Shown here piece by piece: positions 34,166 through 39,101 of a stretch of DNA of 64,000 nucleotides. The first letter of the stretch is position 1, and each line of letters starts with the position of its first letter. A model generated the notes under the pieces. The model searched no databases, was not told the DNA's origin, and was given only the letters and a program-made list of their open reading frames with translations. The DNA comes from an uncultured Acidobacteriota bacterium (GTDB lineage: Bacteria > Acidobacteriota > Vicinamibacteria > Vicinamibacterales > 2-12-FULL-66-21), in assembly GCA_963764925.1 (NCBI GenBank), contig CAVXUR010000008.1:3923-67922 (forward strand), given 5' to 3'. The translations under genes and the position numbers were made by a program.

Positions 34166-34310
34166 ATCCACGTGAAACTGACCAATCGTTGAGAAAAACC
34201 GCTGGAAACATGATTGAAACAGCGCTCGTCATATGATCAAGCGGTCAGGCTCAGGTGCAGGCTTCCGCATCCACGCGTCAGGCTGGCACCCGAGCGAAGA
34301 CCACACGAGG

Positions 34311-35973
34311 ATGATCATGCGAGCCCTGATTGCCTCTCTCATCGCCGTCCTGGCCCTGTCGATCGTTCCCGAGGCGGCGGCCAAGACCTACACCGCCGAG
34401 CGCTTCGACTCCAGAATCCGAATCCTTCCGAACGGCGCAATCGAAGTCGTCGAGACCGTGGTGTTTCGTTTCGAGGGTGAATTCAAGTACGTCTACCGCG
34501 AACTCTCGCGGCGACGTACCGACGACATCGAGATCGTGAGCGCCGAAATGGACGGCCGGACGCTTTCCTTCGGCAACGAATCGGGGCAGGTCGAGGTGCG
34601 GCGACGTTCAAAGGTCCGCGTCGAGTGGAAGTTTGCGCCGCGCGCCGACTCGAGCCACACGTTCGTCCTCACCTACATCGTGCGCGGAGTCGTTCAGCGC
34701 GACGGCGGAAGGGATGTCCTCGAGTGGGTCGCGCTCCCGACCGAGCATGATTACCGCATCGGCGAAAGCCAGGTCAGCCTCGAGCTACCGGTCGCACCGT
34801 TGTCGCGGCCAATCGTCGACTCGAAGCGCGTGGCCGAACTGACGTTCGAGCCTGGCGGTCAGCAGCTGCAGGTGTTCGCGCGTGGAATCGGCAAGAACGG
34901 CTGGGTCAAGACGCGCCTCGAGTTCGGCGAAGGCGCGATCATCGCCGCCGCGCCCGCGTGGCAGCAGCGTCAGCTCGCCGCACGCGCGCTCGCGCCTCGC
35001 TGGCTGACGGGCGCAGGCATCATCCTCGTCGCCGGCCTGTTGTTCATGTTCGCGCTGCGCCAAAGTTACGACAGCCCCTGGGGCACCGCCCACGCCGGAC
35101 CGGTCGACGCGCCGCCAGACACGCTGCGGCCCGCGATGGCCGGCGCCGTCGCTGCGAACGGCGGGACCACGCTTCAGCACGCGATGGCCACGATCTTCGC
35201 GCTCGCCGATCGCGGCGTCGTCACCATCACCGAGGAGCCACGCAAGTGGGGCCAGCGGCACTTCACGCTGCACCGGCGCCGTGCCACTCACCCGCTGGCG
35301 CCTGAAGAAGACGCAGCCTTGAACCTCGCGTTCCGACATAAGGGCGCTGAGGAGGACGCCGTCGCGTTGACGAAAGCCAGGACGCGCCTGGCGGGGCGGC
35401 TCGGCGACTTCAAGCGCGCGGTCAAACAAGAGCTCCGCGGGCTCGGCCTCGTCGATGACGAGCGCATGCGTTTGCGCGCGCGCTACCTCGGATTCTCGAT
35501 CGCGTTGCTGATTCTGGCCGGTCTGCTCGTCGTGCCGGCGGCGTTTCTCGTCTCTCGATACGAGGGCTGGCCGTTTCTGATTGCGGGCGCGGTCGGACTG
35601 GTGTCGGTGATCGGTTTCATCTTCTACGGTTCGCTGACGCCACTGTCGAACGAAGGCGTGCGACGAGCCGAACGCTGGCGGGCGTACCAGAAGCACCTCA
35701 AGGATGTCGCGCGAGAGCGCGTGCACCTGACGACAGACTCGCCGTCCCGGCTGCTGCCATTCGCGGTCGCGCTCGGCCTCGCCGAGCGCGTGGTCGAAGT
35801 ACATGAAGAATCATCCAACCGGCATTCCACCCTGGTTCCGCGCGCTCGCGGTCTCCGGAGACGACAGCGGTTTCTGTGCGTTTGTCGCGGCGGGCGGAGC
35901 CGGTGCGGACGGCGGAGCCGGAGGCGCTGGAGCGGGTGGCGCCGCAGGCGGCGGCGGGTCGGGAGCGGGGTAA
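34311..35973 (+). CDS. DUF2207 family membrane protein, frameshift ~35780
   Basis: NGAIEVVETV..F.G, LLPFAVALG, Gly-rich tail ending GGGGSGAG-TAA at 35973. Confidence 0.88.
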
Positions 35974-35976
35974 CTC

Positions 35977-36306
35977 TCAGCTCTCAGCTCTCATCCTGAG
36001 GGCGTAGCGAACGTCGCGAAGCAGATCAGACAACATGTGCGATCTCCGGCTGAGTGTGGGAGGCGGCAAGGGAACCCTGCGGGGCCGGCTGGGGATGCCG
36101 CTGCCAAGGCGTGCCCCGGCGGGCAGCGCAGCGGTCGCGCGTGCCCAGGCGCGCTCGTGGTCGAGCCCAGACGCGCGCGCCTCTTGATAGAGGTCACCCA
36201 GGTGCTGCGCGAGCTCGTCGATCAGGTCTGGGTCGACATCTCGATCGCCTGCCCCGCCGGGAGGATCCGCCGCCAGACGCCGACGAACGTAGTCGTGCAG
36301 GTCCAT
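35977..36306 (-). pseudogene. Truncated ADOP permease (permease-prefix domain only)
   Basis: DELAQHLGDLY prefix motif, then MLSDLLRDVRYALRM followed at once by a CTCTCAG repeat and stop. Confidence 0.75.
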
Positions 36307-36326: not shown

Positions 36327-36665
36327 CTATCCGAGCGGGTCGAGACCGGCGACGCGATGCAGCGCCGTGAGGAGGGCGTGCCAATCGGTTCGCTGCGATG
36401 CGAGGACCTTCCGCCCGTCAGCCGTCAAGCGGTAGTAGCGGCGGCGGCGCTGCCCGGCTTTCTCGACCCAGGCGCCGTCGATCCAGCCGCGCTTCTCCAT
36501 CCGGTACAGCATCGGATACAACGACGCGACGTGGAACCGGAGCACGCCGTTCGATCGGTCGTCGATCACGCGCGCGATTTCATACCCGTGCCGGGCGCGC
36601 TCTTCGATTGCCGCCAGGACCATCAGCTCGGCGCTGCCGCGCTTCAGCTCGGTGTGTGCGGCCAT
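36327..36665 (-). CDS. PadR family transcriptional regulator
   Basis: KRGSAELMVL, HGYEI, SLYPMLYRMEKRGWI, RRRYYRLT. Confidence 0.95.
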   Translation of the reverse strand: MAAHTELKRGSAELMVLAAIEERARHGYEIARVIDDRSNGVLRFHVASLYPMLYRMEKRGWIDGAWVEKAGQRRRRYYRLTADGRKVLASQRTDWHALLTALHRVAGLDPLG

Positions 36666-36687
36666 ATATTGGCTCGCAATATATGGC
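36661..36687. promoter_or_regulatory. Palindromic operator over the padR start
   Basis: GCCATATATTG-N5-CAATATATGGC, perfect 11-bp arms. Confidence 0.7.
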
Positions 36688-36732
36688 GGGGTCGGTCCCG
36701 TCGTCAACTCCAATCGGCAGTCGGCAATCGGG

Positions 36733-36957
36733 CTACGCGCGGCGGGCGCTCCGGGCCAGGTGCTCCAGCATCTGCCGGCGGTGCGCCATCTCCCGCGAGG
36801 TCAGCTCAGGCGCCGGCGCGGCCTCGAACGGCAGCGATCGCTGCGCCCAGGCCTCGCGGCGCGCCCGCGTCCGCTCGACGCCCGCACGGAAACACTGGAA
36901 ACAGATGGCGTGTCGCGCGCAGATGTGGTCGGTCGTTCTCGTTCGCATGGTGAGCAT
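36733..36957 (-). CDS. Small basic Cys/His protein (74 aa)
   Basis: GAGGA RBS 8 nt upstream; HICARHAICFQC, QRSLPF, HRRQMLEHL. Confidence 0.7.
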   Translation of the reverse strand: MLTMRTRTTDHICARHAICFQCFRAGVERTRARREAWAQRSLPFEAAPAPELTSREMAHRRQMLEHLARSARRA

Positions 36958-36989
36958 GATGATTGTCCTCGACGTCGGGCACGGTGTGG

Positions 36990-37208
36990 CTATGGCAGAT
37001 CCAGGAGCCGCCTGGCTTTCATTTGTGCCTGACGCCGGCGGTGCTCGAGCACCTTGTATTTGTCCGGACCCCGCAACGCGCCGGGCCGACCGGCGAGCTT
37101 CAGCGACACCTTGAGCGGCCGCGCCGGCGGAAAGGCCGGAGGAAACGTGGAGGTCGTGATTTCGCTGAAATCGAGCTGCCGGGCCTCGGATCCACTAAAA
37201 CGGCGCAT
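36990..37208 (-). CDS. Small basic protein (72 aa)
   Basis: AAGGAG RBS 8 nt upstream of ATG 37208; QLDF, EHRRRQAQM. Confidence 0.7.
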   Translation of the reverse strand: MRRFSGSEARQLDFSEITTSTFPPAFPPARPLKVSLKLAGRPGALRGPDKYKVLEHRRRQAQMKARRLLDLP

Positions 37209-37291
37209 CGTCTTATCTCCTTGATCACTGCGCTTGGGCCACACCCCCAAGCGCTATGCAGGCGCTCGCTTCGACTCCTGCATTGAAACCA

Positions 37292-37324
37292 AGTCTAAAA
37301 GGAGGGTGTGACAGGGTAGGTCAC
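37292..37324 (-). promoter_or_regulatory. Candidate WYL-activated promoter: GTGAC-N7-GTCAC box, TGTCAC-N10-TAGACT
   Basis: Inverted repeat 37308-37324; -10 TAGACT at 37297-37292 on minus strand. Confidence 0.7.
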
Positions 37325-37358
37325 GGCCACGGGGCCTCTTTGTTATAGTCCTCAGCCG

Positions 37359-38039
37359 ATGCTCCCCGATCGCCGTCACGAGGTTTCGCGGCTCGAGGCG
37401 TTCAGCGACGCGGCGTTCGCGTTTGCGTTGACGCTGCTCGTGGTCTCGCTCGACGTCCCGCAAAGCTACGACCAGCTGATGCAGGTCATGAGGGGCTTTC
37501 CGTCCTTCGCCTGCTGCTTTGCGCTGCTCGTCTGGATCTGGTACGAGCACAACCTTTTCTTCCGCCGCTACGGCCTCCACGATCCCTGGACTGTGTTCGT
37601 CAACGGGATGCTGCTGTTCGTGACGCTCTTTTATGTCTATCCGTTGAAGTTCATGTTCGATTCGATGTTTGCGCAGTTCATGCCCGCGGCGTACCCGCAC
37701 CTGCAGCGGATGACCCTGGTGGAGCTCTCGCGGGCGTCGGCGATCTATGGATTGGGATTCCTGGTCCTTTTCAGCCTGTTTGCCCTGCTCTACCGGCACG
37801 CGTACAAGCGGCGCGTGGAACTCGGCCTCACGCCGCTCGAGGTGTTCGACGTCAAGATCTATGCGGGCCATCACGTAGTGAGCGCCACCGTCGGATTGGT
37901 GGCGCTGTTGGTCGCCGTTGCCGGCCCGCTGGCTCTGGCACCGATCTCGCCAACGTGTTTTGCACTCATGGGGCCCAGTCACTGGTGGTTCGGCTCTCGG
38001 GCGGACAAGCGCCGACGCGCGCTACTGGCCGCCGACTGA
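37359..38039 (+). CDS. TMEM175 family (DUF1211) channel-like protein
   Basis: RLEAFSDAAFAFALTLLVV signature. Confidence 0.9.
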   Translation: MLPDRRHEVSRLEAFSDAAFAFALTLLVVSLDVPQSYDQLMQVMRGFPSFACCFALLVWIWYEHNLFFRRYGLHDPWTVFVNGMLLFVTLFYVYPLKFMFDSMFAQFMPAAYPHLQRMTLVELSRASAIYGLGFLVLFSLFALLYRHAYKRRVELGLTPLEVFDVKIYAGHHVVSATVGLVALLVAVAGPLALAPISPTCFALMGPSHWWFGSRADKRRRALLAAD

Positions 38040-38086
38040 CTGACGACCGACTCGACTGGCGACTGACGACTGACGACTGTCGACTG
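38033..38086. repeat. Heptamer tandem array (CGACTGA)n
   Basis: GACTGAC/GACTGGC/GACTGTC units. Confidence 0.8.
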
Positions 38087-38090
38087 TGCT

Positions 38091-39101
38091 ATGCCAAGGA
38101 ACGCTGAAGTCATCCGGCAGTGGACGATCCTGCGAGACCTCGAATCGTCCCGGCGCTTGACGATCGACGACTTGGCAGGACGCACAGGCGTCACGACCAG
38201 GACCATCCGTCGCGACCTCGAGGCGCTCCAGGAGGCCGGGTTTCCTCTCTTCGACGAAGTACACGACGGCAAGCGCTACTGGACGCTCGAGCAACGCGCC
38301 TTTCGGCGGCTCGACGAGACGGGCTTCAACCTCGCCGAGTTGAGCGCGCTGTACTTCACGCGAACGCTTGCCGAATGCCTCGCGGCGACGCCGTTCCAGC
38401 AGGATGTTCGCAACGCGTTCGACAAGCTGGCGGCGGCGCTCACGCCAGGCATGCGGCAGTTCCTCGACCGACTGCCGCTCGCGATTCAGGCCAAGGCCGA
38501 TCCGGGCGTCCGCGAAGCGCGACGTCCCGAGGATCGGGCGAGTTCGAAGCCCGATCCGCGCGTGGCACAACTGCTCGACGCGACGCTCCACCATCGTCGC
38601 GTCGAGATGCGCTACCACTCGTTCTCGAGCAACCGCGAGAAGGCGTACGCGGTCGAGCCGCAGCGACTGGTCTTCGCGCAGGGCGCTCTTTACCTCCTCG
38701 CGTTCGTTCCCGAGTACGGCGAACTGCGCACGTTCTCGGTCGATCGCATTCTCGGCACTGTCGCTGACCGAGGATCGCTTCGAGCCGCAAGGATCTCGCC
38801 GAGGACGCGTTCGCGCATTCGCTCGGCGTGCACCAGGGCACACCTGAAGCGATCGAGATCGCATTCGAGCCACAGATGAGCCGCTACATCCGGGGCCGGA
38901 TCTGGCATCCCTCCCAACAGATCGAGGAGCGTCCGGATGGCGGGCTGCTGCTTCGCCTCGACCGTCTCGAACGACTGGGCGCTCCGGAGCTGGATCCTGG
39001 GGTTTGGCGCGCTCGCGCGCGTGGTCGCTCCGGCTCAGCTCGCCGCGCAGATTCTCGAAGAGGTCGAGCGCACTCGAGTCAGGTATCGCCCGCACGCCTG
39101 A
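38091..39101 (+). CDS. HTH-WYL-WCX transcriptional regulator (PafB/DriD-like), frameshifts near 38760-38960
   Basis: GVTTRTIRRDLEAL HTH; MRYHS..VEPQRL..YLLAF..RTFSVDRI WYL; WHPSQ and WILGFG..V..P WCX. Confidence 0.93.

Follow-up and report, generated by a model that had tools for sequence, protein, structure and literature searches.

The 33-bp element at positions 37292–37324 of the window, that is, of the whole 64,000-nt stretch of Acidobacteriota DNA analyzed here, is quite probably, as judged from sequence comparisons, the operator-promoter of a WYL activator of the DriD/PafBC/SiwR/DdaA type, which is encoded 0.8 kb away behind a TMEM175 gene. If the box is indeed a WYL-activator site, an SOS-independent DNA-damage switch of a known kind would be present also in soil Acidobacteria. 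The Vicinamibacterales, to which this genome belongs, are an abundant but barely cultured soil order.

The core of the element is the 17-bp palindrome GTGAC-AGGGTAG-GTCAC (37308–37324, unstranded), consisting of GTGAC (37308–37312), AGGGTAG (37313–37319), and GTCAC (37320–37324). On the minus strand, which is the promoter strand, it reads GTGAC-CTACCCT-GTCAC and spans approximately −39 to −23; it is the proposed site of a WYL dimer. The box is followed on this strand by a fixed spacer of 10 nt (37298–37307), purine-rich on the plus strand, and by the −10 hexamer TAGACT of the small-gene promoter (37292–37297, AGTCTA on the plus strand), which is TAGACT or TACACT in orthologous loci. The minus-strand arrangement TGTCAC-N10-TAGACT, with a gap of exactly 10 nt, could be read directly from the sequence, exactly where the initial annotation had located the box and its hexamer. 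The same annotation saw no good −35 element, and this observation stands: the hexamer CCTACC, found at the distance of a 17-bp spacer, agrees with TTGACA at only two of six positions, and a scan for the sigma-70 consensus on both strands between 36900 and 37500 revealed 0 promoter-like sites. As such, the palindrome is not unusual: the 5.34-Mb assembly contains 11 copies of GTGAC-N7-GTCAC, as compared to 2, 5, 2, and 1 copies with spacers of 5, 6, 8, and 9 nt, and 2,962 copies of the shorter core GAC-N7-GTC. Since it is so frequent in the assembly, the bare sequence is weak evidence by itself.

The promoter faces three genes on the minus strand. The first gene behind the box (36990–37208) encodes a 72-aa protein of an uncharacterized family (MRRFSGSEARQLDFSE...HRRRQAQMKARRLLDLP), the second gene of the operon (36733–36957) encodes a 74-aa Cys/His-rich protein containing DHICARHAICFQCFRAG and ending in AHRRQMLEHL, and the possible third gene (36327–36713) encodes a PadR-family regulator (Pfam PadR, E = 3.3e-23). 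Divergently from the box, on the plus strand, are located the gene for a TMEM175-family membrane protein (37359–38039; Pfam TMEM175, E = 1.6e-14) and that for the proposed box-binding protein, a wHTH-WYL-WCX regulator (38091–39101; Pfam WYL, 4.4e-17, and HTH_11, 2.4e-9). Between the predicted transcription start (37285, minus strand, 7 nt past the −10 hexamer) and the 72-aa gene lies a predicted 5′ UTR (37209–37284, minus strand) that could fold into two hairpins (−31 kcal/mol). About 63 nt of it (37214–37276) were absent from a related environmental contig, where 37213 is joined to 37277 (run X1), and in two related loci (L004 and L009) the two-hairpin 5′ UTR is replaced by a mere short leader. 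The hairpin-like sequence was present in repeated copies in locus L006 and in one partial second copy in this genome. Downstream of padR, a 109-aa ORF without a family (35977–36306) presumably resembles the truncated N-terminus of a larger protein, and the DUF2207 gene (34233–35999) ends in an apparently out-of-frame Arg/Gly-rich tail, which may result from another indel.

Conservation of the box was analyzed in 61 genomes of the same order. A pattern search with the 17-mer including its spacer, allowing up to two mismatches, yielded 116 matches in 53 of the 61 related genomes, versus 23 for the reversed control (totals summed from the per-genome table). We examined 112 distinct sites, as three were not fetched and one had a duplicate context, and removed 13 sites inside alanine racemase genes prior to the spacing count, leaving 99. 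Of the 13 racemase sites (L039, L064, L067, L068, L086, L089, L091, L095, L098, L102, L105, L133, and L136), one was confirmed by the Pfam domain Ala_racemase_C and the other 12 were rejected as boxes by shared sequence. The racemase coding stretch, GCGACCTGCCCTGTCAC-N10-TATCGT, mimics both the box and the −10 hexamer and would contaminate motif-based regulon counts.

Among the 99 sites, a TAnnnT hexamer was located 10 nt downstream of the box in 53 cases and 9 nt downstream in two, whereas all remaining offsets between 0 and 24 had none. On the other flank of the box, such hexamers were scattered, with no more than three sites per offset. Many of the remaining sites carried GAnAnT or CATAnT at the same 10-nt distance. 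In 17 of the 53 promoters, an ORF of 50 aa or more begins with an ATG located 5–8 nt past the hexamer, most often 6 nt past it (10 sites), and this position, judging by sequence, indicates leaderless mRNAs. These ATGs support the assignment of the −10 hexamer and a start 7 nt downstream of it, which corresponds to about 37285 on the minus strand, the start site originally predicted for this promoter.

Exact copies of the box with N10-TAnnnT were also searched for in one genome per prokaryotic species. At least 120 matches were obtained and the first 80 were inspected; among these listed matches, 65 were titled Acidobacteriota or Vicinamibacter*, and 10 originated from Nitrospira, Woeseiaceae, Rokuibacteriota, Methylomirabilia, and Actinomycetota-labelled bins. 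The five other listed matches were rejected, since they belonged to a Bacteroidales LRR gene and reflected coding conservation.

The genomic context ties the box to the WYL gene. Orthologous loci were fetched via the TMEM175 protein, and thus independently of the box, which was present upstream in 13 of the 15 loci that have a WYL gene and in 0 of the 6 lacking it. Of the remaining two WYL-bearing loci, one has a copy with three mismatches, and in the other a copy lies just beyond the fetched stretch. A lack of conservation in orthologous loci, which was named at the outset as an observation that would speak against the motif, was therefore not seen. No conservation at all was seen across these loci in the stretch that separates the box from the −10 element of TMEM175. 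An orthologue of the WYL protein is present in 48 of the 61 relatives, and the genomes, which are related and not independent, comprise 40 with both regulator and box, 8 with the regulator only, 4 with the box only, and 9 with neither; three of the four genomes having the box only are 57%–86% complete. When both site collections were combined into 136 distinct promoter-type sites, the WYL gene was divergent from the box at 34 and downstream of it at 4, while TMEM175 was divergent at 16. These associations provide a genomic tie in favor of the WYL protein as the partner of the box, as initially suggested. In several genomes, the regulator starts 16–265 nt from the box with no TMEM175 gene between them, and therefore the core module consists of the regulator and, on the other side of the box, the genes for the small and Cys-rich proteins, TMEM175 being a lineage-specific insertion.

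The architecture wHTH-WYL-WCX was derived from the Pfam domains HTH_11 and WYL and from PDB alignments of an intact 335-aa orthologue (L002:2231-3238). This orthologue matched PafC (2.6e-11, in the WYL-WCX part) and DriD chains (about 1e-6, residues 14–325). Arginines R37 and R41 of the regulator align with residues 41 and 45 of the 9PFQ chain, which are R37 and R41 of native DriD (an offset of four residues), and the ssDNA contacts R204 and W206 of DriD have R213 and F215 as their counterparts in the alignment; by analogy, ssDNA is probably the signal of this regulator. The recognition helix RTIRRDL is identical in 36 of the 38 box-linked orthologues, down to about 42% N-terminal identity, and the two exceptions, RTVRRDL and RTIWRDL, are such that both base-reading arginines are kept in 38 of 38. 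A single WYL gene per locus was found in the window and in the 15 orthologous loci, and this, together with the palindromic site, suggests that the regulator acts as a homodimer.

In the window, the reading frame of the regulator shifts 0>1>2>0 due to single extra bases near 38756, 38787, and 38960, which split it into four frame pieces. The extra bases lie in GG, AA/GG, and CC runs, and an orthologue 98% identical over the N-terminal part has an intact reading frame. All environmental contigs covering these positions (6, 7, and 3 contigs, respectively, from four runs) are without the extra base; as they come from relatives or strains, they are suggestive of assembly error but no proof of it. 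The public runs, including the RNA-library run X17 (relatives), each matched at most 0.24 of the sampled words and were used as contigs only. In view of these sequences, the three insertions are probably assembly errors. The spacer between TMEM175 and the WYL gene (38040–38088) consists of short repeats of the GACTGAC/GACGACT type, and in run X1 contig depth had a spike of 78x there, as expected for a repeat common to many loci.

The following mechanism can be proposed. A homodimer of the regulator would read both GAC/GTC half-sites, centered at approximately −37 and −25, through the arginines of its recognition helices, and the bound protein would take the place of the missing −35 element. 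With the WYL domain loaded with a damage signal, probably ssDNA, it could recruit RNA polymerase with the housekeeping sigma factor to TAGACT. Transcription would start at about 37285 and proceed on the minus strand through the genes for the 72-aa and the 74-aa Cys-rich proteins and perhaps padR.

The box could instead be the operator of a repressor, with the WYL protein, as in BrxR and CapW, or the operon's own PadR shutting the promoter. The palindrome overlaps the promoter, so that a bound dimer could equally repress; padR is in the same operon here and occurs near the box at 10 of the 136 sites; and BrxR and CapW are reported as WYL repressors (PMC13004042). However, a repressed promoter must work alone, yet this one has no −35 element, and the exact distance to the −10 hexamer in 53 of 99 sites is the register of the activators PafBC and DriD. 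In addition, PadR is absent at 126 of the 136 sites, and PADLOC detected no defence family among six neighboring proteins, the regulator matching only generic WYL models. Repression thus appears unlikely, and we infer that the WYL protein acts at this promoter by activation.

The divergent TMEM175-WYL operon has an extended −10 element TGTTATAGT (37341–37349, plus strand), separated from the box by 16 unconserved bases, and its −35 position would fall on the right arm of the box. The element is kept as TGnTATAGT or TGCTATATT at a variable distance from the box. The TMEM175 ATG (37359) is located 9 nt past the TATAGT hexamer without a Shine-Dalgarno sequence, a layout kept in orthologous loci, and from this sequence arrangement the mRNA is probably leaderless or nearly so. 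The initial annotation also proposed autoregulation of this operon. In this genus, where the distance from the box to the TG is 14–20 nt, the right arm of the box does occupy the expected −35 position, but other genomes have about 40 to 110 nt between the two, and where no TMEM175 gene intervenes the start codon of the regulator may be found 16–30 nt from the box. Because this distance varies, the geometry toward the regulator's own promoter is not conserved. By analogy with DriD homologues, for which feedback on their own gene has been reported (PMC10853764), feedback of either sign on the operon of the regulator is plausible.

The 72- and 74-aa proteins had no family in Pfam, NCBIfam, PHROGs, or PADLOC. 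A homologue search with the 72-aa protein gave 565 matches, all unnamed or "hypothetical," and in a protein atlas the small proteins matched only unnamed clusters with scores below 0.85. The 72-aa family was found downstream of the box at 34 of the 136 sites, and a gene similar to that of the 74-aa protein (cys74-like) at 38. The approximately 70-aa basic protein and the Cys-rich protein share a C-terminal AHRR(R/Q) motif. More generally, small and unrelated-looking proteins behind the box have in common the C-terminal motif (E/A)HRR(R/Q)(Q/M)(A/L)..(A/H)(R/L), found here in 36733–37208 and in loci L035, L041, L056, L097, L116, and L125. Tentatively, the ancestral and main output of the switch could be this pair of a basic protein and a Cys-rich, zinc-ribbon-like protein, and not DNA repair; they might represent a new damage-checkpoint or alarm effector, as DidA is for DriD, although we regard this as rather doubtful.

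Longer relatives of the cys74-like genes form a family of about 180 aa with two CxxC pairs (WVxFPGGELEGxRPKALCPxCR ... LCFQCYRxELxRxRAL). In other Acidobacteriota, the first gene behind the box most often belongs to this family, which was also observed on contigs labelled Acidimicrobiia, Actinomycetes, and Bifidobacterium (loci L141, L144, L147, L153, L162, L164, L165, L169, L187, L192, L196, L199, L207, and L215). A Pfam scan of six members (L141, L144, L147, L153, L187, and L196) detected no domain, and comparison of two of them (L147 and L153) with NCBIfam and PHROGs gave no family. These genes raise the question of whether the box is recognized by a different factor, such as the small Cys-rich protein, which would then regulate itself. 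Linkage to the box is as tight for the zinc-ribbon-type cys74-like genes (38 of 136 sites) as for the WYL gene, and their 180-aa relatives hold the first place behind it in other Acidobacteriota. On the other hand, the GAC/GTC half-sites and the N7 spacing fit the arginines described for DriD and PafB, which are conserved in the regulator here, and boxes occur upstream of recA and ssb without such a gene nearby. Reading of the box by the Cys-rich protein is therefore very unlikely.

In this genome, a PWM scan revealed one strong site of 52 bits, followed by a second-ranking one of 19.7 bits, in an assembly that is 78% complete. The scan for TGTCAC-N10-TAnnnT that had been recommended for defining a regulon was run and gave two occurrences in the assembly, of which the second (C4:78896) is without the upstream half of the box; it thus led to a single strong site in this 78%-complete assembly and not to a regulon. 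The 19.7-bit site, outside the window (C10:111535), is a weak one, GTGACCCCGGCTGTCAT-N10-TATCGT, located 8 nt before the ATG of a 72-aa ORF that adjoins a transposase-like reading frame, judged by eye to be of the IS21 type. In this genome, recA has an ordinary TTGACT-N18-TAGAAT promoter without a box, and no box was found at ssb.

The relatives show a broader picture. The box precedes RecA at eight sites in seven genomes, mostly with weaker GAnAnT hexamers. Other proteins encoded behind it are SSB, DUF2130, and HNH-type nucleases (weak PHROG matches); N6, N4, and C5 DNA methylases, an integrase, and an IS1595 transposase; and SocA/Panacea, DUF932, a ClpP-like protein, VWA proteins, and Cas_GSU0053. 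In loci L154, L202, L211, and L218, on contigs of Nitrospira and Vicinamibacteraceae, the box precedes VWA-like or phrog_7371 proteins, which may be carried by prophages or mobile elements and governed by the same switch. The regulon in relatives thus reaches recA and ssb, while in this genome neither has a box. The proximal half of the box together with the −10 hexamer occurs one to six times per genome in five near-complete genomes, and with so few sites the regulon must be small.

The presence of recA and ssb among the targets would also be consistent with the box being the LexA (SOS) operator of this lineage, the more so as a LexA DNA-binding domain was found in 57 of the 61 relatives. LexA normally regulates its own gene. 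However, when contigs and coordinates were compared by eye, no lexA gene was found near the listed box sites, while the WYL gene is linked to the box, and the fixed spacing to the −10 hexamer and the missing −35 are not features of a repressor site; a LexA operator is therefore highly improbable. The remaining option, a chance palindrome in GC-rich DNA, could be suspected from the 11 copies of GTGAC-N7-GTCAC in the genome and from the alanine racemase mimics of box and −10 in 13 relatives, but it has practically no chance of being correct, being refuted by the 116 versus 23 matches, the predominance of Acidobacteriota among the exact matches, and the N10 spacing in 53 of 99 sites.

The preferred reading, a WYL-activator site, extends the known range of such switches. 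WYL activators sensing ssDNA are known in Actinobacteria (PafBC and SiwR), Alphaproteobacteria (DriD), and Moraxellaceae (DdaA), and Vicinamibacterales would now have a counterpart consisting of a 33-bp promoter signature, an adjoining regulator, and a small regulon that in several genera reaches recA and ssb while LexA is kept. A full-text literature search on WYL proteins and DNA damage in Acidobacteria, and on RecA-NDp/PafBC, found no description of this system. The motif can be used to annotate candidate damage-inducible promoters in Acidobacteriota, and the two unnamed small-protein families, being the most constant cargo of the box, are the first to examine.

The most detailed parallels concern DriD of Caulobacter crescentus (PDB 8TP8 and 9PFQ), a homodimeric wHTH-WYL-WCX protein. 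Its consensus is ATACGAC-N7-GTCGTAT, and R37 and R41 are reported to read the conserved G and C of the half-site (PMC10853764); GTGAC-N7-GTCAC matches this spacing, as proposed in the initial annotation. Like here, there is a single regulator gene and a GAC-N7-GTC palindrome, and R37/R41 as well as the ssDNA contacts R204/W206 align with the regulator of the window. According to a cryo-EM study of 2026, DriD boxes overlap the −35 position and are located at one fixed distance from the −10 element in promoters lacking a −35 element (PMC13004042), as is the case here. DriD is described as acting mainly on the gene for a small protein (didA) and also on recA, and a box is present at its own gene, which can be likened to the system considered here. 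The differences include a similarity of only about 1e-6, half-sites of ACGAC instead of GTGAC, and an AT-rich spacer, whereas the spacer here is conserved, asymmetric, and C-rich (CTnCCCT). Moreover, unlike in DriD, the regulator here sits behind a TMEM175 gene, and its small targets are predicted to be soluble and basic or Cys-rich.

PafBC of mycobacteria acts by sigma adaptation as a heterodimer. Its motif is reported as tGTCgg(N10)tA(N3)T without a −35 element, with GTC read by R46 and R50 of PafB (PMC8635444), and the promoter-proximal half of the box with its −10 hexamer, TGTCac-N10-TAnnnT, is essentially this motif, so that the PafBC-type position assigned to the box is borne out. The missing −35 element, the proposed reading of GTC by two arginines, the presence of recA in the regulon (here, in relatives), and the best PDB match to PafC add to the likeness. 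However, PafB and PafC are described as forming a heterodimer that recognizes a non-palindromic motif, controls about 150 target genes, and is encoded at the proteasome locus, whereas one WYL gene, a full palindrome, and one to six sites per genome were found here. Adjacent pafB and pafC genes, or their fusion, by which PafBC is recognized, are not present, as only one WYL gene occurs in the window and in each of the 15 loci. The −26 element of PafBC has the same proximal half-site and spacing as the element here, where it is, however, one arm of a full palindrome.

The other WYL systems resemble the element in particular features. SiwR of Mycobacterium smegmatis is a homodimer recognizing a 19-bp imperfect palindrome between −35 and −10 (PMC10693628); it is an activator with a divergent adjacent operon, R38/R42 in the HTH, and a small local regulon. 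It differs in being actinobacterial and having DinB-superfamily targets, and it is not reported to control recA. DdaA of Moraxellaceae recognizes CGWCA-N5-TGWCG and has recA, ssb, and defence genes among its targets (PMC12392091). Its motif is palindromic with the same GWC-N7-GWC spacing, and its reported regulon, in which recA, ssb, and uvr genes occur together with genes for restriction-modification and CRISPR systems, is similar to the mixture of repair and mobile or defence functions behind the box in relatives. The half-site sequence differs, however, and DdaA is described as having replaced LexA in its lineage, whereas LexA is kept in 57 of 61 relatives here. BrxR and CapW share the wHTH-WYL-WCX fold and a palindromic operator beside the regulator gene, but they repress defence operons, whereas the geometry here is of the activator type, with no −35.

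The combination of DriD-type spacing with a PafBC-type position, pointed out in the initial annotation, is not a hybrid oddity, because DriD boxes, too, cover the −35 position and keep a constant distance to −10 (PMC13004042). In the didA sequence and its "optimised −35" variant, as given in that report, the −35 hexamer begins at the last C of the upstream GAC; if the didA spacer is 17 bp, a GTC located 12 nt from the −10 element would be common to didA, PafBC promoters, and the box described here. Since DriD boxes share the −10 register, GAC-N7-GTC in the PafBC position is the general architecture of WYL-activator promoters. The element belongs to this known promoter class, of which it is a well-delimited member and not a new kind of system. 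The finding of the same box with the same kind of cargo on Nitrospira, Rokuibacteriota, Methylomirabilia, Woeseiaceae, and Actinomycetota-labelled contigs hints at one very widespread architecture, with GTC 12 nt from −10, of which the −26 element of PafBC may be a reduced half.
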